Below are positions 5,183 to 52,895 of a DNA stretch of 64,000 nucleotides, in pieces. Made by a program: the position numbers and the translations under genes. The notes under the pieces are model-generated. The model saw nothing but the letters and a program-made list of their open reading frames with translations, did no database searches and was not told where the DNA came from. Each line of letters opens with the position of its first letter. Position 1 is the first letter of the stretch. Source of the DNA: Puniceicoccaceae bacterium (GTDB lineage: Bacteria > Verrucomicrobiota > Verrucomicrobiia > Opitutales > Oceanipulchritudinaceae); assembly GCA_040830765.1 (NCBI GenBank), contig JBFOMH010000004.1:96001-160000 (forward strand), in the 5' to 3' direction.

Positions 5183-6259
5183 CTACTTGAAGCTTTCCTG
5201 AAGATAAAGAGCCCAATTCGAACAATTGAACTGGGAGACCCTTTGCCGGGAGCGTTCGCTCATTTGCAGCCATTCCTGCGTACCGGTCATGGGCAAGCCG
5301 TTGAGGACGGTCACAAGGGCACTTTCATCGCAGGGGTGAAAGAGCCAACCACTTTCCTCATCGACCAGATCTGGCTGACACCCACAGGCGTCACTACAAA
5401 TGACTGGGAGGCCGGCAGCCATAGCCTCGTTGACCACTAATCCCCATGGCTCAAAAGTGCTGGGCAGGACAAAAGCACTGGCGCGGGCATATTCCCCGGG
5501 CAGCGCCTCATACCCTACCCAGCCGACAAATTCCACTCTATCGGAGCCGCCGGCGGCATCTCGCAAGGCCTTTTCCTCTGGCCCTCCACCAATAAGACGC
5601 AGTCGCCATGAACTGGCCAGTTCGGATTGCCGGAAGGCGGCGATCAACATGCCCAGATTCTTTTCCGGACTGAAGCGGGCAACCGAGAGCAGGACGGGTT
5701 CACGTCTTATGGAGCCTGATGTAGCGAAATGGTCATTATCGACGACACTGTACCCAACCAGGATGCGGTCCTGGGGGATTCCCAGTTTCTTATGAAAGTG
5801 ATCCCGGGCACGACTGCCTGAAACGAAGAACCTTTGACAGAATATCCGCAGGAAGAATCCCTTGGCCCGGTTAAGCAGCCAGTTCTCCCCATACCAGGAC
5901 TCGGCAAAGAGGGTCACCCGGCAACCCCGCATCCAAGCCAGCTTGATGAAGAGGATATATTCCAGCCGGCCGTAACCTGCGATGGCGACGTTTCGAATTT
6001 GCTTCTCCTTCAGGAGCTTCCAAAACCGTCTCACCCGGTTCCACAGATCCAGTTTTTCAACCGGTTTGGTGGAGAGGACAAAATGGCGGTTGGATTCAGC
6101 AGATCTGCCCCATCCATAGAGCCCGTCCTCTCCGCCGAAATCAGCCGTAAAGACCTGCTCCTCATTGACGAGCTCTTTAAGGGCACGGACCCTTGCCCGA
6201 TGGTAATCGCCAATCCGGTCCCAGACGACCAATATGTTGCCACTTTCCACCCTGTTCAT
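5183..6259 (-). CDS. Glycosyltransferase family 4
   Basis: Motifs VARFSPEKN and LPSTFEPWGLVVNEAMAAGLPVI. Confidence 0.9.
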   Translation of the reverse strand: MNRVESGNILVVWDRIGDYHRARVRALKELVNEEQVFTADFGGEDGLYGWGRSAESNRHFVLSTKPVEKLDLWNRVRRFWKLLKEKQIRNVAIAGYGRLEYILFIKLAWMRGCRVTLFAESWYGENWLLNRAKGFFLRIFCQRFFVSGSRARDHFHKKLGIPQDRILVGYSVVDNDHFATSGSIRREPVLLSVARFSPEKNLGMLIAAFRQSELASSWRLRLIGGGPEEKALRDAAGGSDRVEFVGWVGYEALPGEYARASAFVLPSTFEPWGLVVNEAMAAGLPVICSDACGCQPDLVDEESGWLFHPCDESALVTVLNGLPMTGTQEWLQMSERSRQRVSQFNCSNWALYLQESFK

Positions 6260-7497
6260 CCGCCTTGAATGTTATCCAATTCCTGCAGCATCCGATCCCA
6301 TCTGGCAACTTCATTGCTCCTCTGGTAGTTTTCAGCCCAAAGGCGCCGGGCATTTGATCCCTCTTTTCCAAGTAGATCCGGATTCCTGCTATAACGTCGC
6401 AGTGCTTCAACCAGGCTGGAGTAGTCCCCTTCATGGATAGAACAGCCGGCCTCTGCAAATGCCAGCAACTCAGCGATCTCGCAACGCGTGTCCCCGATAA
6501 AGATAACCGGCCGGCCCGCCTGGAGAATGCCGAAGAACTTGCTTGGAAAAATATACGGTGTCATTGCTTCCTTGAGGGTGAACCAATGCACATCCGGGAC
6601 CCGGAGGGCTGAGGCCAGCTCATCCAGCGGCTGATAGGGAAGGAAAGTGAAACTACTCTCCAGTCCGGCATCTTCAACCGCTTCCTGCAATGCGGCATAT
6701 CCATGACCGCCTCCACACAGCAGAAAGTGAATCTTGTCTTCTTTTTCGAGCGCTTTGGCTGACTCAAGAAGTGTCTTCCAGTCATGGGCCCGACCAAGGT
6801 TGCCCGAGTACCCGACCAACAAGACATCCTCCGGGATCTCCCACGCAGCCCTTAGTTCTTTTTCCCTCGTTCCACCTTCATCCTCCTGTACTGCCCAGTT
6901 GGAAATGCAGACCAGACGGTGACGTTCGATCTCCCGGGCAGAAAGATATGCCTGCATATCTTTTCCGAGGACAACGACCCGGTCGGAACGCCGCAGGCTC
7001 CAGTCGCGGACCAGCTTCAGAAACTTGAACAACCAGCTCGTAAAATTGGAAGGCCGCATACTGGCGATCGCCACCTCGGGAAAAACATCCTGGCACCAGG
7101 CAACCAGGCGGAACTGCTTTACCAAGCGGCCTATGGAACCAAGTATGCTCAGAAGCGGTGGATCTGTCTTCAAGACGACTATGTCCCCGCCTCCAAGGTT
7201 ACGAAGGATGTAGGCGAAGAAGGAGTAATAGATGGTCAGGTAGTCCATCAAGCGGCCGGACAGGGTGCCTCGCCCGAACCGGGTCGACCAGAGGCGGACA
7301 ATCTCGACTCCGCCCAGCTGCTCCCGACGGTCATACTGGATTTCCTTGTTGGCATAGTCCAACCTGCTGGAAATGACCGTGACCTCATAGCCCAGGACAT
7401 CGAGCTCGCGGCAAAGATCCGTCAGGATCTGCGCGGTCGCACTCTGGTCGGGCCAGAAAAAGCGGTTAAAGAAGAAGACCCTCCGGGGACGCATCAT
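6256..7497 (-). CDS. Glycosyltransferase family 4 (WbuB/WcaI-like)
   Basis: Motifs NRFFWPDQSAT, QDVFPE, YSGNLGRAH and FPSKFFGILQAGRP. Confidence 0.88.
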   Translation of the reverse strand: MMRPRRVFFFNRFFWPDQSATAQILTDLCRELDVLGYEVTVISSRLDYANKEIQYDRREQLGGVEIVRLWSTRFGRGTLSGRLMDYLTIYYSFFAYILRNLGGGDIVVLKTDPPLLSILGSIGRLVKQFRLVAWCQDVFPEVAIASMRPSNFTSWLFKFLKLVRDWSLRRSDRVVVLGKDMQAYLSAREIERHRLVCISNWAVQEDEGGTREKELRAAWEIPEDVLLVGYSGNLGRAHDWKTLLESAKALEKEDKIHFLLCGGGHGYAALQEAVEDAGLESSFTFLPYQPLDELASALRVPDVHWFTLKEAMTPYIFPSKFFGILQAGRPVIFIGDTRCEIAELLAFAEAGCSIHEGDYSSLVEALRRYSRNPDLLGKEGSNARRLWAENYQRSNEVARWDRMLQELDNIQGG

Positions 7498-8084
7498 GAA
7501 TCAGATTGTTCAGCGCTTTCCGGCAGCGGCCGGTCCTTGATTTTGCGGGCGGGATTGCCGCCGAGGATTGTCAAAGCCGGGAATGATTTCAGGACCACAG
7601 AGCGCGCCCCGACGATGCTGAAATCCCCAATCTCAACACCCGGCCCGACAAAGGCATCGGCACAGACCCAAATGCCCTGCCCGAGCCGGATTTCCGGTTT
7701 CAAAAGAGGTAGATTAACTTGCGTGTAGTCATGTGTCCCGGCACAGAAGTGCGCCCCGTAGGAAATCATGGTCCCATCCCCGATGATGATTTTTCCCAGC
7801 GAGTACAATTGCACCCGCGGTCCAATAGTGACTTCATCCCCGATTTCCAAATTCCACGGAAAGAAGATGTCCACATCCGGGTAAATGCGGACAGCCTGCC
7901 CGATTTTCGCCCCGAAAGAGCGCAGTAACGCATTCCTGAATCCGTAGAAGAAGCGTGGAACGAGACGCAAAATCGGCCGTATGGCCATCCATAGGATCCG
8001 CTTCCCATACTCCGCGGAGTCATAGTTCTCATTGGCACGGTGGAGCTGAGTACTGAAAATATCTTCTCGATTCATTTTCTGCAT
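7494..8084 (-). CDS. WcaF-like hexapeptide-repeat O-acetyltransferase
   Basis: LRSFGAKIG, FPWNLEIGD, CAGTHDY and GGNPAR; left-handed beta-helix repeats. Confidence 0.88.
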   Translation of the reverse strand: MQKMNREDIFSTQLHRANENYDSAEYGKRILWMAIRPILRLVPRFFYGFRNALLRSFGAKIGQAVRIYPDVDIFFPWNLEIGDEVTIGPRVQLYSLGKIIIGDGTMISYGAHFCAGTHDYTQVNLPLLKPEIRLGQGIWVCADAFVGPGVEIGDFSIVGARSVVLKSFPALTILGGNPARKIKDRPLPESAEQSDS

Positions 8085-8090
8085 GTCCGG

Positions 8091-9527
8091 TCAATTTTCT
8101 CCGCGCGATTTATGGATTACAATGCCCATTACGACAAGCGCAACCGAGGGCAACAAGGATGTCGTAAAAAACTGAAGGCTACGCATTAACAGCAAAATAG
8201 CATAAAAACCACTGGCAAAGACAATCAACGGAAACGGAGTTGTGATGTACTTCGCCAAATGGTTCCAATAGCAGCAAAACATGCCGATCAGTAGCCCAAT
8301 GGCAATAATCCATGGTCTTCCACCTGCAATATAAGCCTCTCCCACCCATGCGACTGCCACTGTGTAGCCTTGTGCACCAACAACGTCTTCGATAGAAACG
8401 GCAAGGTCAGTCGGTTTGCCGGGCCAGAAAGCCCTCGGAATTGGTTTTGTCAGAGCTACAAAAACGAAGTTGAACCCAAGGTAATCATAGTATTGCGGAA
8501 ACGCAGCCGACATTTGAGCAACTCTCCACAAGTTGTAATCTACAAAATATCCGTATTCACCAGAATTCAAATTATCACCCTGATATTGATCTTCAATCTC
8601 GGCAAATGCAGCCGTATGCCGACCTTCCTCTATATACCTTCCCAGCCCCATGTTTCGAAACTCGAGCATCATCCCAGCCAAGTATACAAAACCAATTCCA
8701 ACTAATAATACCGTAGGAATTATAAGCTTAAGTTTTAGTTGCTTCTGAACGATAAAGAAACCGGCAAAAAAGCCAGCAACTTGAATGGCCAGTACATTGC
8801 GCGTTCCGCTGGAAAAGGCCGAATACCACAAAACGACCACGAAAAAAAGAACCACTGCCACCGCGAACTTCGAGTAAAGCTTGCGCCTTGCCAAGATTAC
8901 CCCTGCGACAGGAGGCATGACATAGCCCATGAGCTGCAACTCAAATAAGAGGGCGGATAGGTCTCCATATCTCCCCCTACCCCAGGCCCTTCCGAAGCGC
9001 CACTTGAGAGTTTCCTCAAACCAGGCAATCGGATTGAATTCTACGGCGAGTAACATGGGTAGAAAGTTCAAAAATGTTGCCCCGAAGAAAATAATTAGGA
9101 AATCCCGGGGGCGCATTTCGATCTTGCCAATATGGTCAAGCGTTCCTTTCGGGAATATATCAATGTGCCGTCCTATTACGATTGTCGCCACCCCCATCAG
9201 CGTCAGGTGAATGGCTGTGACCAGGTCGTCGGGGATGACCAACGTATCGAACAGACTTTGCTCAAATAGGAATTCGAAGTAGAGAAGGAAATGGAAGGAA
9301 AGGAGGGCAAAAATATCGACGCGGATCAAATTTCTCAATCCGGCCCGGGCATCGAGCAAAAAGCTGATAGCAAACCCAATCAGCAAAACAACACTGACCC
9401 ATCGGGCCACTTGGGAGGGCATGGCATCACGGAAACTTATGATGGTTCCTAAGACACAACAGACAAGAATGGCAGCTGTGCCGATAGGAGAAGGTCCAAG
9501 TCGATGCCGTCCTTGCATTGGTTTCAA
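8091..9527 (-). CDS. Polytopic membrane protein, Wzy-like oligosaccharide repeat-unit polymerase
   Basis: About 11-12 hydrophobic segments, SGTR and IPRAFWPGKP loop motifs typical of Wzy-type proteins; AT-richer sequence; lies among GT genes. Confidence 0.7.
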   Translation of the reverse strand: MKPMQGRHRLGPSPIGTAAILVCCVLGTIISFRDAMPSQVARWVSVVLLIGFAISFLLDARAGLRNLIRVDIFALLSFHFLLYFEFLFEQSLFDTLVIPDDLVTAIHLTLMGVATIVIGRHIDIFPKGTLDHIGKIEMRPRDFLIIFFGATFLNFLPMLLAVEFNPIAWFEETLKWRFGRAWGRGRYGDLSALLFELQLMGYVMPPVAGVILARRKLYSKFAVAVVLFFVVVLWYSAFSSGTRNVLAIQVAGFFAGFFIVQKQLKLKLIIPTVLLVGIGFVYLAGMMLEFRNMGLGRYIEEGRHTAAFAEIEDQYQGDNLNSGEYGYFVDYNLWRVAQMSAAFPQYYDYLGFNFVFVALTKPIPRAFWPGKPTDLAVSIEDVVGAQGYTVAVAWVGEAYIAGGRPWIIAIGLLIGMFCCYWNHLAKYITTPFPLIVFASGFYAILLLMRSLQFFTTSLLPSVALVVMGIVIHKSRGEN

Positions 9528-10657
9528 TCCTGTTCAACCGGATTGTCGGGCTCAAGCAATTGCTCAGCACATTTATCCCAAGGAAAACGGTCCGCTACAA
9601 GAATTCGATTGTTTTCTATCGAGCCCACAGCCTCCGCAATCCCTTCCACATCACCAAAGGTCACCACGCTCCCCGTCTGCCCCTCGCGGATCAGGTCCTT
9701 GGCCCCGACCCGGTCGCTGACAATACAGGGCACGCCGACCTGCAGGGCCTGGACGACAACCAGGCCAAAAGCCTCCTCGGCAGAGGGAAGGACAAGGACA
9801 TCCATGTCTTGCAGCGCACGGGCAAATTCCGCCTGGGACAAGGAGCCCCGCTGGACAACCTTGGCCCCACCCTTGTAGGCCTCAAAATCCGGCTGGGTCT
9901 CGGCAAACTCCATGCCGAAGCAATGGAGCTCCCAGCCGGTGGAATCGGTATGTTCGAGGGCTTTAAGGAGGTAATGGATCCCCTTGCGAAGGCTTTGGCG
10001 CCCGGCAAAGGCGACTTTGAATGGGCCCTCGGGTAAAGTGGTCCGCTTCTGGAACAGTTCCTGATCGGCCCCGTAGGGAACGACCCAGATTTTTTCCTGT
10101 GAAACCCCTTCCTGCATCAGTTGGTCCCTAACCACCGTGGAGGCTACACAATGATAATCAGCAAGGTCCCATTCCTCCTGCAGCCGCTCCTCGTACCAGT
10201 CGGGCAGCGGCATGGCCTCGTCGAGGCTCCGGCCCATCCGCTCATACTCGGGAGCAACGAGGGCCCGCCATTGCTTCATCGGCCCGGAAGCGTGGTTCAA
10301 AACTGTCGTCATACCGATGCGGCGGGCTGCCTTGAAAGTCTCCAGGCACTGGCCGGGCAGACCATGGATGCAGCCCTCTCCCTGGAGGATGTTTGCCACG
10401 GCAGCATCAAATCCCTTGTCCTGCCAGCGAAACATCCTTGCGTCATCCGGTCGCAGCTGTTCGGGACAGCGCTGCAGGCCATAGGTGATCAGCGTCCGCC
10501 AGGATCGACTGACCATCGGGAACCCGGCCGGTGGATTCAAGCGCCAGCGCGGATATCCGCTGTAATAGCAGCCCAGAGCCCCCTTGTCCTGCAGGGCAAG
10601 TGCCATGTCATAGACATGACAGGGATTCGTGGCCGCAAACGAATGCTTCATTACCAC
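9524..10657 (-). CDS. Glycosyltransferase family 4
   Basis: Motifs FAGRQSLRKG and LPSAEEAFGLVVVQAL..GVP. Confidence 0.88.
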   Translation of the reverse strand: MVMKHSFAATNPCHVYDMALALQDKGALGCYYSGYPRWRLNPPAGFPMVSRSWRTLITYGLQRCPEQLRPDDARMFRWQDKGFDAAVANILQGEGCIHGLPGQCLETFKAARRIGMTTVLNHASGPMKQWRALVAPEYERMGRSLDEAMPLPDWYEERLQEEWDLADYHCVASTVVRDQLMQEGVSQEKIWVVPYGADQELFQKRTTLPEGPFKVAFAGRQSLRKGIHYLLKALEHTDSTGWELHCFGMEFAETQPDFEAYKGGAKVVQRGSLSQAEFARALQDMDVLVLPSAEEAFGLVVVQALQVGVPCIVSDRVGAKDLIREGQTGSVVTFGDVEGIAEAVGSIENNRILVADRFPWDKCAEQLLEPDNPVEQD

Positions 10658-10669
10658 CAGTCAATATCC

Positions 10670-11851
10670 CTAAAGCTTGTCATCCCGCAAGCCCCATTCC
10701 TCGAAGGAATCGAGTACGAGATTTTTGACGGCCTTGTGTCCTTCCTCCGTAAAATGGCCCTCATTGGGATGAAACAAGCTATTGCCATCCATAGGACTGT
10801 CACTTTCAGGACCAAATTCCCACGCTACGTCCAAACAGGCTAGGTCCCTGTCCTGACACATTTTCATCAACTGTTCTCCTACAAATGCCTGGAACCGTCC
10901 GGAATAGGAGTCGGGATCGGAGACCAGTGATTGCCCGGGCAGGAGGATAACCGATAAGCCGGTGCCACGACTGGCTGCCTCTGCCTGAATTGCTTCAACC
11001 AAAGCCTCCATCAGCTGGATGCGATCTGTCAGGCGACGTTTGAGGATCTCGTCCGTAACGGATTTATCGACATCCGCCCGGCTTTGAAAAATTCGGGAAA
11101 ATAGATGCCGCTCCTTTAATTTGCCTAGCCACCCATTCCGGTGTTCAACCAACTCATCCCCAAATGTCTCACTGGCCAGGGTTCTCTGGTACTCCTCCGG
11201 CTTCGGCTCCCTCGGGACGGGGCTGTTGCGTAACAAGAGGTCGCCATATTCCGTCAGCTCGAAGTAGGGCTTGGCCAGCTGGGTCTGCAGGGGATACGGG
11301 AGGGCGTTGTCGAGAAAGTCATTCCCGAGGTAGATGACGAGCAGGTAATGGTCGATCGCCAGCTGGCGACCGCGGTTGCGCATGAGGAGGTATTCCTGGT
11401 CGGTACTGTAGCCGGGAACGGCGAGGTTGAGCCAGTCGCGGTCGGGGTTCTCCTGCTGGAGCAGGTCGACAAAGGTCTGCCCGTCATCGACCCCGAACCC
11501 GAAGGTGAAGCTGTCCCCGAGAACACCGATCCGGGGCCGTTCCTTGGGCTGGGAGAGGTCCGGAAAGTCACCCCGGAAACCGTGTTCATTGATGGTGTAG
11601 GTGACCTCAAAATCGTGGTGCCCATGGGTCCCCTTCCAGCCTGGTGCGAGCTTCCATCCGAGGACGCGGTCATACTGGATGAGCCCGGGATCAAGCCGGT
11701 TGCTGTTGTTGATGCGATCCTGCCGCCAGCTGAGGAACAGCTCGGCCCCGACGAGACAAATCAGGAGTTCAACAAGGACAATGAGGGAAATGAAAAAGAC
11801 CTTTCTGCCTGTGCCGATTTTACCGCCCATACCTGCCGCCTGACTGTGCAC
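10670..11851 (-). CDS. Membrane-anchored SGNH/GDSL hydrolase-family protein (possible glycan O-acetylation or de-acetylation)
   Basis: N-terminal TM helix; LGDSFTFG, NLAVPGYSTDQ, YLGND and EGHFTEEGH blocks. The start could be ATG 11830. Confidence 0.8.
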   Translation of the reverse strand: MHSQAAGMGGKIGTGRKVFFISLIVLVELLICLVGAELFLSWRQDRINNSNRLDPGLIQYDRVLGWKLAPGWKGTHGHHDFEVTYTINEHGFRGDFPDLSQPKERPRIGVLGDSFTFGFGVDDGQTFVDLLQQENPDRDWLNLAVPGYSTDQEYLLMRNRGRQLAIDHYLLVIYLGNDFLDNALPYPLQTQLAKPYFELTEYGDLLLRNSPVPREPKPEEYQRTLASETFGDELVEHRNGWLGKLKERHLFSRIFQSRADVDKSVTDEILKRRLTDRIQLMEALVEAIQAEAASRGTGLSVILLPGQSLVSDPDSYSGRFQAFVGEQLMKMCQDRDLACLDVAWEFGPESDSPMDGNSLFHPNEGHFTEEGHKAVKNLVLDSFEEWGLRDDKL

Positions 11852-11980
11852 AATCCGCTGGTGCTGTCCACCTGTATTGGGACCTCCCTGAACAGAAGAA
11901 TATGAGGAATTTCCATTGACCCATGCCCAAAAAATCCCTCATATAATGTAACGCAACTGTAACTCTCCTCGCCTACCCCG

Positions 11981-12187
11981 GTGATCACACTCTCCAAGAA
12001 AACATTTTGCCTGCTCCTGCTGGGCCTGTCCACGCTTGCTGTGGCCAGCCTCTGTAGTATTCTGCAACTACCTATGCATCAGGCAATTATGGCATTCATC
12101 ATCACATGGATTGGCCTGATCGCCATCTTTGAGGTGGCGGATTTCAGCAACGACAATTTTCCGCGGGACCCATCGAAGCAGCAGTGA
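11981..12187 (+). CDS. Small two-TM hypothetical membrane protein
   Basis: 68 aa with two hydrophobic segments; fills the gap and is followed by a terminator hairpin. Confidence 0.5.
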   Translation: MITLSKKTFCLLLLGLSTLAVASLCSILQLPMHQAIMAFIITWIGLIAIFEVADFSNDNFPRDPSKQQ

Positions 12188-12233
12188 GGTTGATTTTGCG
12201 AGACCAGCAACCCACTTGAAGGGACCCGCACCC

Positions 12234-12263
12234 AAAGAAGGAGGCCGAAAGGCCTCCTTTTTT
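12234..12263. terminator. Bidirectional Rho-independent terminator
   Basis: AAAGAAGGAGGCC-GAAA-GGCCTCCTTTTTT: GC stem, GNRA loop, T-tract on + and A-rich flank on the other side, between convergent genes. Confidence 0.85.
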
Positions 12264-12288
12264 GATCGGCAGGGGGAGAAGTGGGCAC

Positions 12289-15200
12289 CTAAAGGACGGG
12301 AGCAAGGTGCTCCTGGAACCACTCGAGGCTCCCCTCCCGGCTCCAGGCATCCAGCTGGGCGGGGTCCTTGAGCTGCTGACCGCGGAGGCGGGGGACCTCG
12401 ATGAAAGCGGCCTGCCCCTTCCCCTGGGAGGGAAGGTAAGCGGACATGTCTCCCCAGAGCCGTTCAAACTGGAGCACGGGAAAAATATCCTCCTGTCCCC
12501 TTCCCCACCGTTTCTTGGTTTCCTTGATGGTGATGTACGTCGGCATGCGGGTAGCCACCCGGCGCACGGCATCCTGCAATTCTGCATAGCGACAGCCATC
12601 GGGCAACAGGTCCGGATGCGAGAGGTCCTCACGGGAGTAGCCAAAGATGGCCAACAGGGCATCGACATCAATCCACGAGGTAGCGGTGTTATAGAAGGAG
12701 AGCCGGAATTCATCCTCCTCTTGGGGCAGGGCAAATCCCTCGACCAGGCGAACCTGGCCATCAACGCGGGCCAGTCCTCCCCCGACATCCTCGAACTTTC
12801 GTTGCATGACTTCAAAGGTCAGCGGGGACCCGCTCAGCAGGTGATGTCCCAGATAGACCGGGTCCAGGGAGGCTCCCAAAGTATCGATGTTGTGCAAGAG
12901 CAGTGTGGTCAGTGACGGATTGGCCAGAAGAAGGTTCTGGAGGGTCCCGTTGAGGAGCAGGTTCGGCACCTCATACCAGTGTCCGACCGGATGGAGGCAT
13001 TGCAGGGGAAGGTTGTCGCGGTAGTCGGCGGCCTCGCCGGTGTCCTCGGCCCAGCGCATCAAGGCCTTGCGGACGGAATCCCGCATTTTTTCGGCCTGCT
13101 CATCGAGTTTCTCCTGAGGCAGCTCATACCAGGCATAGCGCAAGTCGCGTAACGTCGGCACGAGGCGCAAGCCGACCGAGCGGCCCTCGGACAAATGCAG
13201 ATCGACCCCCTCGAGGGCCTGTGGGTTGCGCTTACGAAAAACCTCGAGCCAGTCGGAAATGGGTCCATGCGTCAGGTAGCCGGTGGTGACGACATGGGAA
13301 ACCGGTGCTCCAGTAACCTGGGCACTGAGCCGCGACTTGGCCAGGTGCGTTTCCAGAAAGCTCCGGAACACCCCCTTGAAGGGCGCGAACGGGTGGAGGG
13401 CCTTAACCACTCCGGCACCCTGGGTCCACCGGGAACCCGCCCCGGCGGCGAGGGTGACGACCGCACACTCACCCCGGGCCAACGCTTCCTGTCCGGCCTC
13501 GGCACAGGCTTCAGGATCAAATTTGAATTGCAGTTCGTCGCGGGAAACGTCCTCAAGGTTTGTCTTCGGATGTAACCGGTTCTGGCTCAGCCCGACCCTT
13601 CCAGCCCGAAGGTCCTCCCGGATTTGTTCGTGTTGCTGGGGATCAAAGCCGTGACGCTCCAGCAATTCGTTGAGCCCAACGGATTCCGTGGACGCATCTG
13701 CCTTCCGGGTTTCCTCCGGAACCAGACTGGCGAGGAACTCGCCTGCATGACGACCGGCAAGATTCCGGACCATGTGCATGTCATGGCGTTCCACGTTCGA
13801 CCGCTCGGACGGATGCTTCTGAAGAAGAACCGGGAGCTGGAAACGGAGGTATTCCTTGAGGAAGTGCGGAACCGCCGGGTCCTGCCCGGCACCCGCATCG
13901 GCCAGATGCCCCGTGGAACCATGCCGGTTGATCGAGAAGTCATAGATCACCGGGTCCATGGCAAACGGAAGGGCACGCTCGTACTCCTTCTTGAGGCGGA
14001 TAAGCACCTCGGCGATGATCGGCTTGACCCTCTCCCGTAATTCGGGGCGGACAATCAGGCCCATTCCACCACCGGACATCCCGCCCAGCATCCAGAAACC
14101 CCAGAAGCCCTCGCTTAAGGTGGCGGTTCCGACCGATTGACCGGCATCGCTTGATCCATCGACCTCGGCGATGGCGGTTGAAACCTCGGCAATCAGTCGC
14201 TCGGTGAAGGCGTTACTGGACCAGGGGATAATTTCCTTCAACGGGCCGAAAAAGTGCCTCGTGGTCAACTGGCCCATTGTCCGGATATCTCCCTCGTGCA
14301 GGGCATCGAGGATTCCCCGGGTAAACTGCAGGGAGCCCTGGCGGGATTCCCATTCGAGGGCGTTTCTCAGCAGGTAACGCTCCGTTACCATTTCAAGGAT
14401 CGGGCCGACATTGGCCGCCATTCCCCCATGGATAAGGATCAGGGATTCCTCCAGGGCATTGATGGAGGCCTCTGGAATATAGTCTCCGTCCAGCCGGGTA
14501 TGGCGCGGAATCAAGGCCCCTCGGGCAACTGCGTCATCTTTCACTTCAGGGGCCGTTGCGACTGCTTCGTCCGGGGATTCCTGGGAAAGCATCGCGGAAG
14601 CAATCTCACCGTTTATGAGGCAGCCTTCGATCAACTTGGCCCCCGGCCAGATGCCTCCCGAGTCCTGCCAGCCGCCCCCGGAGCCCCCAAGCCACTCGCC
14701 GAGGATAGCCCGCGAGGCGACTATCCGACGTTCCTCCTCGCTCATTCCTCCCGACAAGTCCTTGATCTGGCTGGTGGCCCGCATGCAGGTTGCGATGAGG
14801 CTTCCAAGCAGGTTGGTCGAAACCGCCAGCCGGCTCCCCTTGGGAATGTCCCTTACCCAGCTGACCAGCTCCAGCCCGCGGCCAGGACCCAATAGTCGGG
14901 CCAGCAAGCGGCTGAGTGGCGTCCGCGATCCTTCCATTCCCGGGGGAATAATCCCTGAGGCGATCAGCGCTGCCTTGAGGAGCCCGAGGTAGTCCCGGCC
15001 GAAATCAAAAAGGGTACCCAGGTCATCCACTTCAGCCACATTTTCGAGGTCAATACTGACCAGGCGGATAACCGGCCGGTCGATGACCCGTAAGGCACTC
15101 AGGCAGGGCGGTACGGGCCCCTGCGGGCTTCCCGTCATGGCCAGGTCAACAGATACATTGACCACCTTGGCGAACTCCGGCCGGTCCATACCAAGGAAGA

Positions 15201-15828
15201 AGATGTCCGACCAGGAGCTATGGGAAAGGTCCATCCGCACCGGTGTTTGCTCAATCAGCCAGGGAGCGTTACCATCCTGCCCATTGACCAATTCCTTGCG
15301 GACGCGCAGGGGAAAGTCATCCGGATGCCCAATGCGGAACATCCATTGGTTCCCGATTTCCTGGCGGACGGATTTCCTGACCTGGTTGGCAAGGCTTTGC
15401 AGGGCGAGGTCGTAATAGGCCGTGGCCAGGCCGCTCGACAGGGTCACATTGAGCCGGGCCTTGCGCCCATGCTGAAGAAGCGCATCGATGGCCTCCTCAA
15501 AGTTCCGGTTCTGCAGGGCCCGATGGGCGTTCAGCGGGATGGGACACGGCACCAATTCCTCGTCATCCACACCCGGCCGGCTCGCTTCATTCGCATCCAC
15601 ATGAGCGGGAAGGACGAACCGGTGCAGGTGATAGAGAATGACGAGTGTCCGCACCCGCAAATACAGGTTATCGGTCTCCCGCCAGAAAGACTCCATCGCG
15701 TCACAGTCTTCGAGAAGTTGCTCAAGGCTGCGGCCCTCGACCAGACTCTCAATGGACCGGTCAAACGTCGCCGCTTCGGTTCCACACAAGGTCTCGAGGA
15801 AAGGGGACATGGCTGTTCCAGTACTCAT
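12289..15828 (-). CDS. Fusion of a GHMP-family sugar kinase and a UDPGP-family UTP:sugar-1-phosphate uridylyltransferase
   Basis: Kinase-like motifs TPVRMDL..SWSD, IPKGSRLAVSTNL, GGSGGGWQD and GGMSGGGM; C-terminal LAAGAGSRW..GVVKA, HPVGH, NIDTLGA, YNT and QFE motifs. Confidence 0.8.
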   Translation of the reverse strand: MSTGTAMSPFLETLCGTEAATFDRSIESLVEGRSLEQLLEDCDAMESFWRETDNLYLRVRTLVILYHLHRFVLPAHVDANEASRPGVDDEELVPCPIPLNAHRALQNRNFEEAIDALLQHGRKARLNVTLSSGLATAYYDLALQSLANQVRKSVRQEIGNQWMFRIGHPDDFPLRVRKELVNGQDGNAPWLIEQTPVRMDLSHSSWSDIFFLGMDRPEFAKVVNVSVDLAMTGSPQGPVPPCLSALRVIDRPVIRLVSIDLENVAEVDDLGTLFDFGRDYLGLLKAALIASGIIPPGMEGSRTPLSRLLARLLGPGRGLELVSWVRDIPKGSRLAVSTNLLGSLIATCMRATSQIKDLSGGMSEEERRIVASRAILGEWLGGSGGGWQDSGGIWPGAKLIEGCLINGEIASAMLSQESPDEAVATAPEVKDDAVARGALIPRHTRLDGDYIPEASINALEESLILIHGGMAANVGPILEMVTERYLLRNALEWESRQGSLQFTRGILDALHEGDIRTMGQLTTRHFFGPLKEIIPWSSNAFTERLIAEVSTAIAEVDGSSDAGQSVGTATLSEGFWGFWMLGGMSGGGMGLIVRPELRERVKPIIAEVLIRLKKEYERALPFAMDPVIYDFSINRHGSTGHLADAGAGQDPAVPHFLKEYLRFQLPVLLQKHPSERSNVERHDMHMVRNLAGRHAGEFLASLVPEETRKADASTESVGLNELLERHGFDPQQHEQIREDLRAGRVGLSQNRLHPKTNLEDVSRDELQFKFDPEACAEAGQEALARGECAVVTLAAGAGSRWTQGAGVVKALHPFAPFKGVFRSFLETHLAKSRLSAQVTGAPVSHVVTTGYLTHGPISDWLEVFRKRNPQALEGVDLHLSEGRSVGLRLVPTLRDLRYAWYELPQEKLDEQAEKMRDSVRKALMRWAEDTGEAADYRDNLPLQCLHPVGHWYEVPNLLLNGTLQNLLLANPSLTTLLLHNIDTLGASLDPVYLGHHLLSGSPLTFEVMQRKFEDVGGGLARVDGQVRLVEGFALPQEEDEFRLSFYNTATSWIDVDALLAIFGYSREDLSHPDLLPDGCRYAELQDAVRRVATRMPTYITIKETKKRWGRGQEDIFPVLQFERLWGDMSAYLPSQGKGQAAFIEVPRLRGQQLKDPAQLDAWSREGSLEWFQEHLAPVL

Positions 15829-15834
15829 GCGTTG

Positions 15835-16686
15835 CTACCGCTGGGCCGGTTCATTTCCCTGCTTGGAATCGGCGAGAACACGTATCAAGTCAGCCAGTAC
15901 CATTTCCCGGTTCGGCCCGGCCAGAGCCATCGCCAGCTCGGCATGGAGCAGGCCGTACTGGGCCTCAAGATCGAAGCGGTTGCCGTCAAGGAGGGCGGCG
16001 TGCAGGTGCCCCCGTTTGGCCAGGGCATTCAAGGCAGGACTCAGGCCGATGGAATCACTTTCGGCTGCGACGGCATCAAGCTGTTCGAAGATTTCCCGAT
16101 CAAGGACGTGGATGCCAAAGAACCCGAGGTAATACCCGGAGCGGTGTCCCGGTACCCGCATGTGCAACTCCGCTTCCGTCGGGGTTGGTTTTTCGCGCAC
16201 CTCCCTGACCTTGTATATTCCCGGTTGCTGGCCCACTGGTTCGCCGGTAACGACCCCAAACTGGGTTACCTGGCTCTCGTGCGTCGACTGGACAGCTGAA
16301 ATGGGCGACTGGAACCGATCGTGCAACTTAACCAGCTGGGCGACGCAGCTCAACTCGCTGTCATGGCTCAGGAAAAGATGGTCGCAGACCAACAGGACAA
16401 AGGTTTCATCACCAACAAACGCCCTTGCCCGGAGAACAGCATCCCCAAAACCGCGGGGATTATCCTGGGCAATCATGGTCAGCCGCTGCTGGCCCGAACG
16501 GACTGCCGATTTGTAGAGCTCTCCATCTCCCGGGGTATGGACAACGGCCACCTCAGTTATGCCCGCCGCCTCAAGGTCCTTCAGGTGAAGGGCCAACAAG
16601 GGGACAGCCTTTCCCTCGGTGTCGGACAGGGTCTGGACGGGCAGGTTCCGGTGCTGCGGACTGGCCGCAGTAATAACAGCTTTCAT
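15835..16686 (-). CDS. GalU/GalF-like sugar-phosphate nucleotidyltransferase with a degenerate signature
   Basis: KAVITAASPQHRNLP in place of KAVIPxAGLGTRxLP; retains Q..PRGFGDAV, CDHLF, FGVV and EKP. Confidence 0.75.
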   Translation of the reverse strand: MKAVITAASPQHRNLPVQTLSDTEGKAVPLLALHLKDLEAAGITEVAVVHTPGDGELYKSAVRSGQQRLTMIAQDNPRGFGDAVLRARAFVGDETFVLLVCDHLFLSHDSELSCVAQLVKLHDRFQSPISAVQSTHESQVTQFGVVTGEPVGQQPGIYKVREVREKPTPTEAELHMRVPGHRSGYYLGFFGIHVLDREIFEQLDAVAAESDSIGLSPALNALAKRGHLHAALLDGNRFDLEAQYGLLHAELAMALAGPNREMVLADLIRVLADSKQGNEPAQR

Positions 16687-16719: not shown

Positions 16720-17619
16720 TCAACTTAGGAACCGCACTTCGGGCTCCAGCTCCACGCCCTCCTTCTCCCGCACAACCGACTGCACCTGCTCCATCAAGGC
16801 CAGCACATCGGCGGCCGTGGCATTGTCGGCATTCTCAATCCAGTTGGCGTGCTTGAGCGAGACCATGGCCCCGCCAATCCTGTGGCCCTTGAGCCCACAG
16901 CGGTCGATCAGGACAGCGGCCGGAACGCCTTCTGCAGTCCCCTTAAAGACCGACCCGGCGGTGGGCTGGGTCAGCGGTTGCCGTTCATGGCGCATGGCGA
17001 GGTGGATGGCCGTTTCCTCGCGAATAGCTTCCCGGGTGGACACCTGCTCCAGGGCAAACCGGGCCGCGGTGACAATCCGGCTGGAGTCCAGAAGGTCCGT
17101 GTGGCGATAGACCGGATGAAAATCGGCATAGGGCTGCCACTCGGCTTCCCCCTCTAGCGAAACGGTCCGCACTTCCGTACACCGGTTGGCGGTCTGGCGC
17201 TCATCCCCGGGTCCGTAGCCGGCATTGATGGCAACAGCGGCCCCGACGGTTCCCGGAATGCCGATGTAGAACTCGTATCCCCCGAAGCCTTCCCCGGCGA
17301 CTACCTTGGATAGCCGTGGCAGGGACATGCCGGCCGAAACCTCGATAATGGTCTTTCCTGATGGGTCCTTGCTCAGGGAATGGTCAGAGGAATCCATCTG
17401 GCGCAGGCAAATGACCAGCCCCTTCAGACCGGCATCGGCTATCAGGACATTGGAACCCCGGCCGAGGATATGAAGTGGGAGTTCCTGTCCTTTCGCCCAC
17501 GCCAGGGCCTGCAGCAGTTCCGCCTCCGTCTGGGGCATCGCAAACCACTCCGCCGGACCACCAATCTTCCAGGTCGTCAGGGGGGCAAGGGGGATGTTCT
17601 GCTCAGGCAAGTGTTCCAT
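16720..17619 (-). CDS. murB: UDP-N-acetylmuramate dehydrogenase
   Basis: TTWKIGGPA, GRGSNVL, GIPGTVG, QP...TAGSVFK, KHANWI and LEPEV motifs. Confidence 0.95.
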   Translation of the reverse strand: MEHLPEQNIPLAPLTTWKIGGPAEWFAMPQTEAELLQALAWAKGQELPLHILGRGSNVLIADAGLKGLVICLRQMDSSDHSLSKDPSGKTIIEVSAGMSLPRLSKVVAGEGFGGYEFYIGIPGTVGAAVAINAGYGPGDERQTANRCTEVRTVSLEGEAEWQPYADFHPVYRHTDLLDSSRIVTAARFALEQVSTREAIREETAIHLAMRHERQPLTQPTAGSVFKGTAEGVPAAVLIDRCGLKGHRIGGAMVSLKHANWIENADNATAADVLALMEQVQSVVREKEGVELEPEVRFLS

Positions 17620-17622
17620 AAA

Positions 17623-17742
17623 AATCTTAATCTTGATCTTAGTCTTAATCTTAATCCAGCGGCGAACTCAAAGGCTAAGATTAAGAGCAAGATTAAGGCT
17701 AAGATTAAGATTATGGGGGAGATTAAGGCTAAGATTAAGATT
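17623..17742. repeat. Intergenic inverted array of hexamer repeats, (AATCTT)n / (AAGATT)n
   Basis: 17623-17656 has about 6 AATCTT-like units. 17671-17742 has 12 in-phase hexamers, mostly AAGATT/AAGGCT, complementary to the left arm. Confidence 0.9.
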
Positions 17743-18676
17743 ATTCCAGGACGCCCTTGAAGTAGTCGATGGTTCGTTGCAGGCCTTCCTCCAGATGGAC
17801 CTTTGGTTCCCAGCCGAGCTTTTCCCTGGCGAGCTCGATATTCGGCTGACGCTGGAGGGGATCATCCTGTGGAAGCGGCTCGTAGATGATTTTAGACGTG
17901 GAACCGGTCATTTTAATGACCGCTTCAGCCAGCTCGAGAATCGTGAACTCGCCGGGATTGCCGATATTGACCGGACCCGTGAAGTCCTCGCAATTCATCA
18001 GGCGAATGAAGCCCTCAACAAGGTCATCGACGTAACAGAAGGAGCGTGTCTGGGAGCCATCCCCATAGACCGTGATGTCCTGGTTCTGGAGGGCCTGGAC
18101 GATAAAATTGGAAACTACCCGGCCATCGCCCGGATGCATGCGCGGGCCATAGGTATTGAAAATCCGGACCACCCGGATATCGACCCCGTTCTGGCGGTGG
18201 TAATCAAAGAACAGCGTTTCCGCGACCCGCTTGCCTTCGTCATAGCAGGCACGAATGCCGATCGGGTTGACCGACCCGCGGTAACTTTCGACCTGCGGAT
18301 GAATCTCCGGATCGCCGTAGACCTCGGAAGTACTGGCCTGGAAAATCCGGGCATTGACCCGCTTGGCCAGGCCGAGGCAATTGATGGCCCCCATGACCGA
18401 GGTTTTGACCGTCTTGATGGCATTATACTGGTAATGAACCGGTGAGGCCGGACAGGCCAGGTTGTAGATCTGGTCCACCTCGACCTTGAATGGATCGATG
18501 ACGTCCCAGCGCATCAACTCGAAATTGGGATGCCCCAGCAGGTGCCGGATGTTGGCCTTGGTACCCGTGAAGAAATTATCCAGGCAGATGACATCGTGAC
18601 CCTGTTCAATGAGCCGGTCCACCAGATGGGAGCCAAGGAATCCAGCTCCTCCTGTTACGAGAATGCGCTTGTTCAT
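17741..18676 (-). CDS. uxs: UDP-glucuronate decarboxylase (UDP-xylose synthase)
   Basis: [39 protein letters not shown] and [10 protein letters not shown]. Confidence 0.92.
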
Positions 18677-20380: not shown

Positions 20381-21328
20381 TCAGGACCGCAGACGTCCAG
20401 CTTCCACGGAGGAGAGGAAATCCGCATAGGCGTTGGCAAGCCCCTCCTGAAGGGAGATTCGTGGCTTCCAGCCCAGTTCCCGGATGAGAGTGTTGTCCAT
20501 TAACTTCCGCATGGTCCCGTCCGGCTTGGAGGTATCGAGGGTAATGGTTCCCTCATAGCCAACGGTCGCAGCGACCTGCTGGGCCAGATCGTGGATACTG
20601 ACATCCTCGCCATAGCCGATATTGACCCAGTCGGGCGGGTCCTCGAGCTCCATCAGATAAAGAAGCCCCTCGGCCAGGTCATCCACATGCAGGAATTCCC
20701 GCCGCGGCTTGCCCGTTCCCCAAATGGCGACTTCCGGCAAGCCGGATTCCCTGGCCTCATGGAAGCGTCGGATAAGTGCCGGGAGGACATGGGAATTCTC
20801 CGGGTGGTAATTGTCGCCCGGGCCGTAGAGGTTGGTCGGCATGGCGGAGTGGAAGAGGACCCCGTACTGGCGGCGGAGGTAGGAGCAATACTTCAGACCG
20901 GAAATCTTCGCCAGGGCGTAGGCTTCGTTGGTCTTCTCAAGGGGTGACGTCAGAAGGCACTCTTCCGGCATCGGCTGGGGTGCCTCGCGGGGATAGATAC
21001 AGGAGGAACCAAGGAAAAGAAACCGCTTCACGCCGTTGCGCCAGGCCGCGTTGATGACGTTCATCTCCGCCATCAGGTTCTCGTACATGAACTCCGAGGG
21101 ATAGGTGTTGTTGGCGTGGATGCCACCCACCTTGGCGGCAGCGAATATCACGAGTTCCGGTTTTTCGGCAGCAAAGAAATCGTCCACATCCGCCTGCACC
21201 GTCAGGTCGAGTTCCTGCCGGGTCCGGGCCACCAGATTCGTGTAGCCCCTGGCATCCAGAGCCCGGCAAACCGCGGAGCCGACCATACCCCGGTGGCCGG
21301 AAACGTAGATTTTGTCCGTCTTGTTCAT
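20381..21328 (-). CDS. fcl: GDP-L-fucose synthase
   Basis: [43 protein letters not shown] and SHVLPAL. Confidence 0.95.
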
Positions 21329-21342
21329 CCGTCTTTTTTATT

Positions 21343-21443
21343 AACCACGGAATACACGGAATACACAGAATTCATATAAGATAATTGGGGTGGAGATTTT
21401 TCGAAGGAATCGGATTTCCGTATTTTTCGTGTATTCCGTGGTT
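21343..21443. repeat. Intergenic inverted repeat built from 9-bp tandem units (CACGGAATA)
   Basis: Left arm AACCACGGAATACACGGAATACACAGAA (21343-21370); right arm TTCCGTATTTTTCGTGTATTCCGTGGTT (about 21416-21443); flanked by T and A runs. Confidence 0.85.
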
Positions 21444-21456
21444 TAAAAAATCACCC

Positions 21457-22527
21457 CTACCAGCCCTTCTTTTCGACGCTGGCGATGTCGGCCTCGGTCA
21501 TGATCTTCACCAGGTCGGTGAACTTCGTCTTTGGCTCCCAGCCTAGCTCGCGCTTGGCCTTGGCCGGGTCACCGATGAGCAGGTCAACTTCCGCGGGACG
21601 GTAATATTCGGGATCGACCGCCACCCGGACAACGCCCTGGTCATCACGGCCGACCTCGTTTTCTTCACTGCCCTCCCAGGTAATGTTGATACCGGCATGC
21701 TTGAAGGAGAGCTCGGCAAATTCACGAACCGTGTGGGTTTCGTTGGTCGCCAGGACAAAGTCGTCCGGCTCATCATTCTGGAGAATGCGCCACATGCCCT
21801 CGGTGTATTCCGGAGCGTAGCCCCAATCCCGCTTGGCATCGAGGTTGCCAAGGCGCAGCTGTTCCTGCAGCCCCAGCTTGATCCGGGCGACGGTGCGGGT
21901 GATCTTGCGGGTGACAAAACTTTCCCCACGACGCGGTGATTCGTGGTTGAAAAGGATGCCATTGGAGGCATGGATGCCGTAGGATTCGCGGTAATTGACA
22001 ATGATCCAGTAGGCGTAGAGCTTGGCCACGCCGTAGGGGGAACGCGGATAGAAGGGCGTCGTCTCATCCTGGGGAACCGCCTGGACCTTGCCATAGAGCT
22101 CGGAGGTGGAGGCCTGATAGAAGCGGACCTTGTCCTTGAGGCCGACTTCCTTGATGGCGTCGAGGAAGCGAAGGGTGCCCACGGCATCCACTTCAGCGGT
22201 GTACTCCGGAACATCGAATGATACCTTGACGTGCGACTGGGCACCGAGGTTGTAGATCTCCTCCGGACCGATGTTTTCCAGCAACCGGTTCAGGTTGGAG
22301 GAATCCGTCAGGTCGCCGTAATGGAGGAAAAGCCGCTTGCCGCGGATTTCCGGATCCAGGTTAAGGTGTTCAATCCGGCCCCAGTTGAAGGAACTGCTGC
22401 GACGGACGATGCCGTGGACGATGTAGCCCTTGTCCAGCAATTGCTCCGTCAGGTAGGAACCATCCTGGCCGGTGATACCCGTTATCAGGGCCACCCGGCC
22501 CTCATAGGATTTTGATGTGTCAGACAT
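21457..22527 (-). CDS. gmd: GDP-mannose 4,6-dehydratase
   Basis: [30 protein letters not shown] and [17 protein letters not shown]. Confidence 0.97.
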
Positions 22528-22540
22528 TTTTAAATATGGA

Positions 22541-23845
22541 TTAGAGCGCGCGGATCATTCCCCCCGCCAACGTTTCATGCGTAAATGGATCCACTAGAAC
22601 AAGCGATCCGGTAATTCGGTTTCGGGAATACTCATCCACAAAGAGTGGACTCGCAACCCGTAAGTGAATTCGGGCGATCTCGTTCAGCCCAACTTCCGGC
22701 TCATCCTCGACCTTGTGCAGGGTATTGACGTTGACCTTGTACTGGACCGATTTCACGGCCGCCTTCACTTCCCTGCTGGTATGGCGGATGAAGAGCTTGT
22801 CGCCCGCCTTGAGTTTCCGCTTCTCGGAAAACCAGCAGATCATGCAGTCGATCTCCTGCTCCACCCGGGGCTTGTTGTTGGGCTTGACCAGCATGTCGCC
22901 GCGGGAGATGTCGATCTCGTCCTGCAGGGTGATGGCGCAGGAGTGCGGATGGAATGCTTCCTCAAGCTCCCCGTCATGGGAGTGGATGGCCTTGATCTTG
23001 GAGGTGAACCCGGACGGCAGGACCATCACCTCGTCCCCCGGCTTGAAGACACCGCCAGCCACCTTGCCGGCATAGCCCCGGAAATCGTGCCATTCATTGG
23101 AATGCGGACGGATGACCCACTGGACCGGGAACCGGGCATCGACATGGTTGGCATCCGGCCCGATGTAGACCGTCTCCAAGTGGTAAAGCAGGGAGGACCC
23201 CTGGTACCAGGGCATGTTCTCGGACTTGCTGACCACATTGTCCCCCAGCAGGGCGGAAATCGGCATAAAGGTGATTTGCGGGATGTCGAGCCGGGACGCG
23301 AAGTCCTTGTAGTCATCGACAATCTCGTTGAAGCGCTCCTCGGACCAGTCGACGAGGTCCATCTTGTTCACCGCCACAACCACGTGCTCGATCTGCAGCA
23401 GGGAGGCGATGAAGGAGTGACGGCAGGTCTGCTCAATGACCCCGTTGCGGGCATCAACCAGGATGATGGCCAGGTTGGCCGTGGAGGCCCCGGTGACCAT
23501 GTTGCGGGTATACTGGATGTGGCCCGGGGTATCCGCGATGATGAACTTGCGCTTCGGAGTGGCGAAGTAGCGGTAGGCCACGTCGATGGTAATCCCCTGC
23601 TCGCGTTCCGCCCGAAGCCCGTCTGTCAGCAGGGCCAGATTGACGTTCTCGTCACCCCGTTGCTTGGAACTGCGTTCCACCGCTTCCAGCTGGTCCTCGA
23701 AAATGGTCTTGGTGTCGTACATCAGCCGCCCGATGAGGGTCGACTTTCCGTCGTCAACCGAGCCCGCGGTGGTGAACCGGAGCAATTCCATGTCGAGGTA
23801 GGAGTCCTTCTCCTTTGCCTGTTTGTCTTGATTAACTGAAGTCAT
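22541..23845 (-). CDS. cysN: Sulfate adenylyltransferase GTPase subunit 1 (no fused APS kinase)
   Basis: [40 protein letters not shown] and NKMD. Confidence 0.96.
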
Positions 23846-23866
23846 GCAAAAATTCCTCGAAATGGA

Positions 23867-24775: not shown

Positions 24776-24810
24776 AAGCCGTCTAATCTGTGGTTTATTA
24801 GGTAAAATAG

Positions 24811-50211: not shown

Positions 50212-50286
50212 GGGTACAAGGTAAAGGGATATTTCGCTTTCCTCAAGCTATCTCACCACAGATTTACCGATTCACTATATGGGCGG

Positions 50287-52755: not shown

Positions 52756-52895
52756 TTTTGGGGGTTTGGGGTGGTTTTGTCAGCCGTGATGGCTACATGT
52801 TCCATCGTTAACTCCTTGGTTCTGGATCGGCAAAGTCAATTTATAACTATTAAAATGGAGGTTGACCGGTTGTCCCGGGGCAGGAAAATCCCTTC

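Follow-up and report, generated by a model that had tools for sequence, protein, structure and literature searches.

FKP of Bacteroides fragilis (5YYS, 9IIP, 9IIT; model PRK13412) joins a kinase and a sugar-1-phosphate nucleotidyltransferase in one chain, and plant FKGP is an enzyme of the same kind. In FKP, a Fucose_pyrophosphorylase/beta-helix domain stands at the N-terminus, ahead of a linker and a GHMP kinase domain. The zebrafish protein GKUP likewise combines a GHMP sugar-1-kinase with a nucleotidyltransferase aimed at a uridine diphosphate (UDP)-sugar; a short bacterial-type nucleoside triphosphate (NTP)-transferase is N-terminal, the kinase is C-terminal, and pyrophosphorylase activity could not be shown, according to the accessible part of the report (PMC3938481). 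As far as the accessible texts describe them, the known fusions (FKP and GKUP) place the nucleotidyltransferase first and use the short bacterial type. We analyzed a window, i.e., the whole stretch of 64,000 nucleotides (nt) from a Puniceicoccaceae bacterium (contig JBFOMH010000004.1), in which the gene P0001 (hereafter the large gene, encoding the large protein) shows a different arrangement. The large gene belongs to a large, unstudied two-gene family with a new build, which consists of a kinase, a eukaryote-type UDPGP domain and a separate GalU-like subunit (the partner). With moderate confidence, and from sequence evidence, we read the large protein as a two-step sugar-activating enzyme with a GalU-like subunit, which would convert a free sugar through its sugar-1-phosphate to the UDP-sugar.

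The domains were assigned on the translated open reading frame (ORF) and on A1, an alignment of 60 full-length homologues of the large protein from at least 10 phyla, which was split into four parts to build profiles. The features of the pair are given below in window coordinates, with lengths in amino acids (aa).

12289..15828, minus strand: large gene P0001, a single ATG-to-stop ORF of 1179 aa
12289-12291, minus strand: stop codon (TAG) of the large gene
15253..15828, minus strand: family-specific N-terminal domain, residues 1-192, from A1 conservation and hhalign to the FKP linker
13879..15252, minus strand: fucokinase-type GHMP kinase domain, residues 193-650, from FKP profile and PDB matches and A1; it holds motif I PVRMD..W.SD, a variant P-loop PKGSRLAVST, GGSGGGWQDSGG and motif III GGMSGGGMG
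13474..13878, minus strand: inter-domain linker, residues 651-785 (135 aa), with the lowest conservation of all parts (46% mean column identity)
12292..13473, minus strand: UDPGP-family pyrophosphorylase domain, residues 786-1179, from Pfam, a PDB profile and A1; it holds the NB loop LAAGAGSRW...K809, PVGH at 947-950, NIDTLG at 980-985, E1030 and YN at 1046-1047
15835..16686, minus strand: GalU-like NTP-transferase partner P0122, 283 aa, 6 nt upstream of the large gene

An earlier note on this DNA had placed the ORF at 12289-15828 without giving a strand, which is minus, and all of the motifs that it quoted were found in the 1179-aa translation: PVRMDL..WSD (residues 196-208), IPKGSRLAVST (328-338), GGGWQD (384-389), GGMSGGG (582-588), LAAGAGSRW (793-801), PVGH (947-950) and NIDTLG (980-985). 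Met7 is an alternative start, and the database copy P0002 has 1173 aa. The database name of the large protein is UTP--glucose-1-phosphate uridylyltransferase, and the JGI automatic annotation is kinase/pyrophosphorylase. The mean column identity of A1 was 60%, and members of the family are approximately 50% identical between phyla. A kinase half and a pyrophosphorylase half are both real as judged by several methods, each of which covers a part of the protein. Known anti-phage defence systems were also screened using PADLOC, in which 0 families were matched by the large protein or the partner. The domain map agreed with the earlier note in that, relative to FKP, the domain order is reversed and the pyrophosphorylase is of a different family. 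The note had also named no characterized protein of this architecture; our full-text literature searches found no paper on a kinase-then-UDPGP protein, and the accessible part of the review PMC6329318 does not mention such a fusion.

Using hhalign, we compared A1 with 14 aligned FKPs of Verrucomicrobiota genomes. The two alignments matched with a probability of 99.8% (E 1.3e-27, 492 columns), and residues 7-638 of the large protein corresponded to residues 449-959 of FKP in the numbering of the host's own FKP. The stretch matched in FKP comprises the linker and the whole kinase domain, and the GHMP domain is present in full as far as motif III, i.e., linker and kinase are homologous to those of FKP over approximately 490 aligned columns. 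In the PDB sequence search, residues 194-431 matched the FKP kinase chain 9iip_A (E 5.9e-7), and FKP chains were the only PDB relatives of the kinase-domain profile (E 5.7e-11). The NCBIfam FKP model PRK13412 matched residues 194-401 (E 9e-14) over model positions 613-800 only; its score of 50.1 bits is far under the equivalog cut-off of 721 bits, indicating that the large protein lies outside the FKP equivalog. The Fucose_pyrophosphorylase domain had no Pfam match on the large protein, which has a C-terminal UDPGP-family domain instead. Unlike FKP, the large protein also has an obligate, separate GalU-like partner, and the host carries a true FKP besides.

The residues assigned to FKP function in the accessible part of PMC11982464 are Asp762, the proposed general base; Arg592, which together with Mg stabilizes the leaving group; Ser719 and Ser720, which are part of the glycine-rich loop 712-720; the essential Glu751; and the sugar contacts Trp599, Asp601, Thr602 and Gln761. 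We transferred them to the large protein using the PDB-search alignments of the single sequence and of the kinase profile. FKP R592 mapped to R198, W599 to W206, D601 to D208, S719 to S337, S720 to T338, E751 to E378, Q761 to Q388 and D762 to D389, and each of these residues was invariant in the 60 sequences; thus, the catalytic and sugar-contacting residues named for FKP are kept, with one exchange that is considered below. The earlier note had described the P-loop as atypical. PKGSRLAVST was present in 60 of 60 aligned homologues; compared with PxGSGLGSS(A), it retains the Pro, the Gly-Ser, the Leu and the Mg-holding Ser, whereas the two glycines found in FKP are Arg and Ala. As the variant loop is invariant in 60 sequences, it appears to be a working, specialized site rather than a product of decay.

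The N-terminal domain contains R60, R70, R108, E112, Q149 and GNxWMFRxG (159-167) as invariant elements in A1. Because the profile-profile alignment of residues 7-638 covers the linker of FKP, this domain is an enlarged counterpart of that linker, which is described as three alpha-helices in the accessible part of PMC11982464; the earlier note had noticed a helical region at the N-terminus of the large protein. No PDB relatives of the N-terminal profile were found. Searched against 1.84 billion representatives, the profile matched 646 proteins at E<=0.001, and the best 150 of these 646 matches (137-287 bits) look like members or fragments of the large-protein family.

The earlier note had proposed to check each half with HMMER. 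This check supported the pyrophosphorylase half, as Pfam UDPGP (PF01704) matched residues 956-1062 with 28.4 bits against a gathering cut-off of 22, whereas GHMP_kinases_N/C gave no match; UDPGP was the only Pfam match on the large protein. The PDB sequence search yielded eukaryotic UDP-glucose pyrophosphorylases (UGPases; 2i5k, E 6e-9) over residues 939-1085, and with the C-terminal profile, 16 of the matched sequences were UGPases (best E 1.8e-15) and a single one was a UDP-N-acetylglucosamine (GlcNAc) pyrophosphorylase (E 0.004). By these matches, eukaryotic UDP-glucose pyrophosphorylases are the closest relatives of the UDPGP domain. The NB loop of this domain has an Arg (GSRW), as in UAP/USP-type enzymes, rather than the UGP form. 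With UGP (PF01704; 8C0B, 2I5K, 2ICY), the domain shares the Gly-rich NB-loop motif and its Lys as well as the active-site GH, NxD, Glu and Asn. However, sequence alignment extends over only approximately 110-140 residues, one of the four residues that bind glucose, Asn331, is not conserved, and the domain is fused behind a kinase.

In the UGP of Aspergillus (AnUGP), glucose is bound by Asn256, Glu307, Asn329 and Asn331, the phosphates by Lys135, His228 and Lys403, and Mg by Asp258, according to the accessible part of PMC10470519. In the C-terminal profile alignment, G227/H228 of AnUGP corresponded to G949/H950 of the large protein, N256 to N980, D258 to D982 and E307 to E1030, all of which were invariant in A1, and N329 corresponded to N1047, which was at least 90% conserved; K809 was assigned by the loop motif only. 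The kinase and UDPGP sites both look built for catalysis. The profile of the linker between them found no solved relative.

Gene order indicates that the real unit is the gene pair, i.e., the large gene together with its partner, which the earlier note had overlooked. We collected 79 related loci from species-representative genomes; the underlying scan yielded at least 594 relatives among at least 600 pattern matches. The partner was located directly upstream of the large gene in 78 of the 79 loci by tblastn, the exception being L049. In 46 of the 61 pairs with both ORFs called, the two genes were at most 30 nt apart, and 15 of these 46 overlapped by 4 nt. The partner also adjoined the large gene in 9 of 9 positive genomes of the Verrucomicrobiota sample. 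At one Verrucomicrobiota locus (G033:C187:214-4416), the order is reversed, with the partner downstream instead of upstream of the large gene.

The partner resembled YngB and GalU structures in a structure-sequence search, and it scored 92.8 bits against the GalU model TIGR01099 (cut-off 326.8) over model positions 95-261 only, which is below GalU membership. It showed no specific relation to the N-terminal domain of FKP (probability 1.2%). In the conserved loop GXGTRXLPXTK of PaUGP, G11 and R15 are crucial and K21 is needed for the active tetramer, as stated in the accessible part of PMC11005391. Among 47 partners, 34 retained the first Gly of this loop, 5 the second Gly and 27 the Arg, while the Thr was replaced by Gln or His in 46 and the Lys by Thr in 35. 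Residues Q74, GYGHA, D102, E165-K166-P167 and R237 were invariant in the partners, and R-x-D motifs were also kept; presumably, these invariant residues correspond to the uracil, Mg and sugar-phosphate contacts of GalU. As the nucleotide loop is degenerate, the partner is probably a ligand-binding, non-catalytic subunit. GalF and GMPPA are known to accompany or regulate catalytic paralogues. In GalU/GalF and GMPPB/GMPPA, as in the present pair, a nucleotidyltransferase-fold protein with a degenerate loop stands beside a catalytic pyrophosphorylase. Those proteins are paralogues, whereas the UDPGP-family enzyme and the GalU-like partner are not, and synteny is what points to their association.

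We propose that the kinase half, with the N-terminal domain as an FKP-linker-like scaffold, would transfer phosphate from adenosine triphosphate (ATP) to the anomeric hydroxyl group of the free sugar. In the kinase site, Asp389 would be the base, Arg198 would stabilize the transition state, Ser337/Thr338 would hold Mg, and Trp206, Asp208 and Gln388 would contact the sugar. The UDPGP half would then convert the sugar-1-phosphate and uridine triphosphate (UTP) to the UDP-sugar, with Lys809 and His950 at the phosphates, Asp982 at Mg, and Asn980, Glu1030 and Asn1047 at the sugar. The partner would be a regulatory or sensing subunit that binds UDP-sugar or a uridine nucleotide, its own catalysis probably being lost. 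The one-protein kinase and pyrophosphorylase enzyme proposed in the earlier note is therefore retained as the best reading, which the invariant FKP-type and UGP-type residues make plausible.

Several observations weigh against this reading. The Pfam GHMP models remained below threshold on the large protein, and two glycines of the GHMP consensus are exchanged (FKP G715 to R333 and G717 to A335). Thr602 of FKP is Ile209, the sole exchange among the sugar contacts named in the accessible source. In the UDPGP half, the position of UGP Asn331 is a variable column (A1049 in the large protein), and Lys292 of the UGP SB loop, as numbered in the accessible source, is Val1015. In addition, two pyrophosphorylase-type proteins per module exceed the needs of a simple salvage step, and the association of the partner with the large protein is read from synteny alone.

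The constant company of two different pyrophosphorylase-type proteins would also fit a three-site conversion cycle. The kinase would produce X-1-phosphate, the UDPGP domain UDP-X, and an epimerase encoded elsewhere UDP-glucose, from which a catalytic partner working in reverse would release glucose-1-phosphate and UTP; the pair would then be catabolic. Such a cycle of the pyrophosphorylase type is the 'Isselbacher' variant of the Leloir logic. The uracil-, Mg- and sugar-phosphate-binding residues retained by the partner are consistent with it, and so is the host genome (96.9% complete), in which galK adjoins galE (G000:C19:62376-64520) and galT of either type was not found; because galK and galE occur without a galT, these genes suggest that the host uses a pyrophosphorylase-type Leloir route for galactose. 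However, the GXGTRXLPXTK loop of the partner is degenerate at residues that are crucial in PaUGP (G11, R15 and K21, from the accessible part of PMC11005391), and an epimerase was linked to the pair in none of the 79 loci; we regard the cycle as unlikely. The kinase-like half could alternatively be a sugar- or ATP-sensing regulatory domain, which would make the large protein a regulated UDP-glucose pyrophosphorylase. Gal3p is a relative of galactokinase that senses and does not phosphorylate. The P-loop PKGSRLAVST in place of PxGSGLGxSS, the unmatched Pfam GHMP models, the database name UTP--glucose-1-phosphate uridylyltransferase and the nearness of the UDPGP domain to UGPases would all agree with a sensor. 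Nevertheless, the base Asp, transition-state Arg, Mg-binding Ser and sugar-contacting Trp, Asp and Gln known from the accessible FKP report are invariant in 60 sequences from at least 10 phyla, and the variant P-loop is itself invariant, which favors a working, specialized site and renders a sensing role improbable.

Weighing the last alternative, in which the pair is the dedicated supplier of a nucleoside diphosphate-sugar to a neighboring glycosyltransferase and Wzy-like gene cluster, requires the surroundings of the pair, which are as follows.

5183-11851: glycan cluster with three GT4 genes, a hexapeptide acetyltransferase, a Wzy-like membrane protein and a GDSL esterase, to the right of the large gene on the minus strand
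11981-12187, plus strand: convergent small ORF, 68 aa, with two hydrophobic stretches
12238..12259: GC-rich hairpin AAGGAGGCC-TTTC-GGCCTCCTT, 30 nt past the stop of the large gene, read from the sequence
20381-24814: guanosine diphosphate (GDP)-fucose de novo genes (gmd, fcl) and cysDN

Glycosyltransferase genes flank the pair in the window and in its closest relative (L001), and GDP-fucose de novo genes lie nearby; the earlier note had inferred that the enzyme supplies the adjacent glycan locus. However, among 131 immediate neighbors of the pair in related loci, glycosyltransferases were found only at L001, and by Pfam the flanking ORFs were a miscellany (PGK, PolA, PriA, RpoD, SucA, SMC, BamA, UvrC, DinB, a tRNA synthetase and others). 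Clustering of 884 ORFs from the related loci gave no recurrent neighbor other than the partner, the next cluster being the antisense shadow of the partner. The G+C content of the glycan cluster (0.49-0.54) is lower than that of the large gene (0.605), which agrees with the rest of the window (0.57-0.60). In addition, the flanks are collinear in a genome of the same genus (G069, 2.1 Mb) at 70-81% identity, with murB, epimerase genes, fcl and GT4 in order, and there murB and the GT4 gene are approximately 330 nt apart (G069:C2:66445-68656) and the pair is absent. Relative to G069, positions 10670-16686 of the window, comprising the GDSL-esterase gene and the pair, form a 6-kb presence/absence block. 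As the partner is the sole conserved neighbor in the 79 loci and the flanks persist in G069 without this block, a tie to the glycan locus is unsupported, and we consider a dedicated supplier role very improbable. The survey of genomic neighborhoods suggested in the earlier note thus revealed a conserved partner gene and spoke against the link to glycan genes. In our best explanation, the two genes form an accessory unit of ancient inheritance that stands by itself, outside the neighboring glycan locus.

Returning to the reading of the large protein as a sugar-activating enzyme, we examined the sugar routes of the host. The host has a true FKP, which scored 1069 bits against PRK13412 (cut-off 721). 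The FKP gene (L083:138-5405, on G000:C27) follows approximately 1 kb downstream of a gene resembling pectate lyases, whose score with the PelZ model (141 bits) is below the cut-off. A standalone eukaryote-type UDPGP gene encoding 476 aa adjoins a PGM-family gene (G000:C24, about 50000-53550), and canonical GalU was not found in the host genome. Because the host has FKP, GalK/GalE and this standalone UDPGP protein, the route from fucose to GDP-fucose, the galactose route and the ordinary UDP-glucose route seem to be covered elsewhere. We tried the idea that the pair replaces GalU and rejected it; a full-length GalU-type gene occurred in 2 of 9 holders of the pair, but 104 of 151 genomes had no GalU match, i.e., there was no complementarity. 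A functional link to FKP was rejected as well. FKP was present in 6 of 9 holders compared with 16 of 142 non-holders in Verrucomicrobiota, yet in 0 of 3 holders in three other phyla, so that the co-occurrence looks like a reflection of lineage or lifestyle and not of function.

Distant homologues of the large protein are found in much longer chains. P0393 (2318 aa) and P0394 (3133 aa) are 29% identical to it over 95% of its length, and their P-loops (PRSSGLAIST and PRGSGLAVST) have Gly in place of R333. In both, the fusion also includes ROK kinase, IMPase-family and HAD domains. The HAD domain has its nearest relative in the glucose-1-phosphatase YihX, and the ROK domain in GlcNAc kinase or glucokinase; a partner-like domain was not found in either protein. 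The N-terminus of P0393 is a signal-peptide-like stretch. In metagenome sequences, an ORF of at least 6926 aa with an open 5' end (L104:3-20783, plus strand) contains two tandem kinase-UDPGP units together with two ROK domains, a tagatose-bisphosphate-aldolase-like domain and a glucose-6-phosphate isomerase-like domain, and a 4028-aa ORF (L105:3-12089, plus strand) contains glucose-1-phosphatase-like, ROK, class II aldolase and PGI-like domains. More than half of the length of these giant fusions (L104, L105, P0393 and P0394) has no family match. The IMPase-like domain gave the idea of a myo-inositol oxygenase (MIOX) route to UDP-glucuronate, which was rejected as neither MIOX nor inositol-1-phosphate synthase was found in the host; the MIOX model was silent in control genomes too, which makes this a weak negative.

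The fusions place the kinase-UDPGP unit among central hexose-phosphate enzymes and point loosely at glucose. This pointer is only a lead, as it comes from a handful of sequences on a distant branch without the conserved Trp. The earlier note had suggested a uronic acid, a pentose or a deoxyhexose as the possible sugar of the pair. Our best guess is a common gluco- or galacto-configured hexose. Tentatively, the pair may be a phosphoglucomutase-independent route by which a free common hexose, most simply D-glucose, is brought to its UDP form; an anomeric hexose 1-kinase would be channelled into the UGP-type domain, with a UDP-sugar-sensing pseudo-GalU subunit. We consider this route because of the nearness of the UDPGP domain to UGPases, the similarity of the partner to GalU and the hexose-phosphate-type domains beside the distant homologues, and we regard it as possible but doubtful. 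We know of no natural glucose 1-kinase, and a phrase search of the literature found none.

The large protein matched at least 7993 proteins of 648-2064 aa, the best 120 of which were 52-100% identical to it. Holders belong to Verrucomicrobiota, Planctomycetota, Chloroflexota, Acidobacteriota, Ignavibacteriota, Bacteroidota, Calditrichota, Armatimonadota, Kiritimatiellae and others; one of the loci is on the chromosome of Stieleria magnilauensis TBK1r. Within phyla, the distribution is sparse. Of 151 Verrucomicrobiota genomes with a completeness of at least 90%, 9 contained the pair, and so did 9 of 151 Planctomycetota genomes, a count that includes the holder chosen as the center of the latter sample. 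In a FastTree tree of 60 sequences, the phylum label changed 12 times, compared with 9 as the lowest possible number and 30.8 on average after shuffling. As the tree largely follows phyla, it is better explained by old inheritance and numerous losses than by a recent spread. The large gene was not found in phage records, and 1 of 72,556 plasmids carried the pair, namely a 243-kb non-mobilizable plasmid of Hymenobacter volaticus (L112, NZ_CP095065.1 51192-55422). There, the partner is annotated as 'sugar phosphate nucleotidyltransferase', and the large gene, which is broken into three pieces and for which no coding sequence is listed, is probably a pseudogene. In the Planctomycetota genomes G216, G232 and G293, the large gene matched in two pieces, which in G232 are approximately 1.2 kb apart; the gap could be an insertion. 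Shorter homologues turned out to be contig-end fragments and do not indicate that natural stand-alone halves exist.

Metatranscriptome libraries of two studies contained contigs that were 100% identical to parts of the large gene, and one contig (16039-17133) bridges the partner and murB. Contig depth peaked in the bin 12100-12286, at 83.6 in X1 and 48.4 in X2, and uncovered bins (e.g., 13783-14717 in X1) are uninformative. As the contigs give neither strand nor level and DNA carry-over is possible, this is weak evidence of expression. The strong hairpin at 12238..12259 is followed by TTTTTT on the plus strand; it was not listed by the consensus scan. It is likely a two-way terminator common to the large gene and the convergent 68-aa ORF. 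On the other side of the pair, the AT-rich spacer between murB and the epimerase gene (17610-17745) consists of AATCTTAATCTTAGCCTT-like repeats that form a long hairpin (-34.7 kcal/mol, z -4.8). Rfam gave sub-threshold matches only, in this same spacer (Phe_leader, 36 bits against 55).

FKP-like sugar-1-kinase/pyrophosphorylases are valued tools for nucleotide-sugar synthesis and define salvage pathways. The present family has thousands of members in at least 10 phyla, which are labelled plainly as 'UTP--glucose-1-phosphate uridylyltransferase'. The large protein might serve as a one-pot UDP-sugar catalyst, and the degenerate partner, if truly so, would be a bacterial pseudo-enzyme that controls sugar activation. 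Once found, the sugar of the pair would define a new step in bacterial nucleotide-sugar metabolism and correct a widespread annotation.

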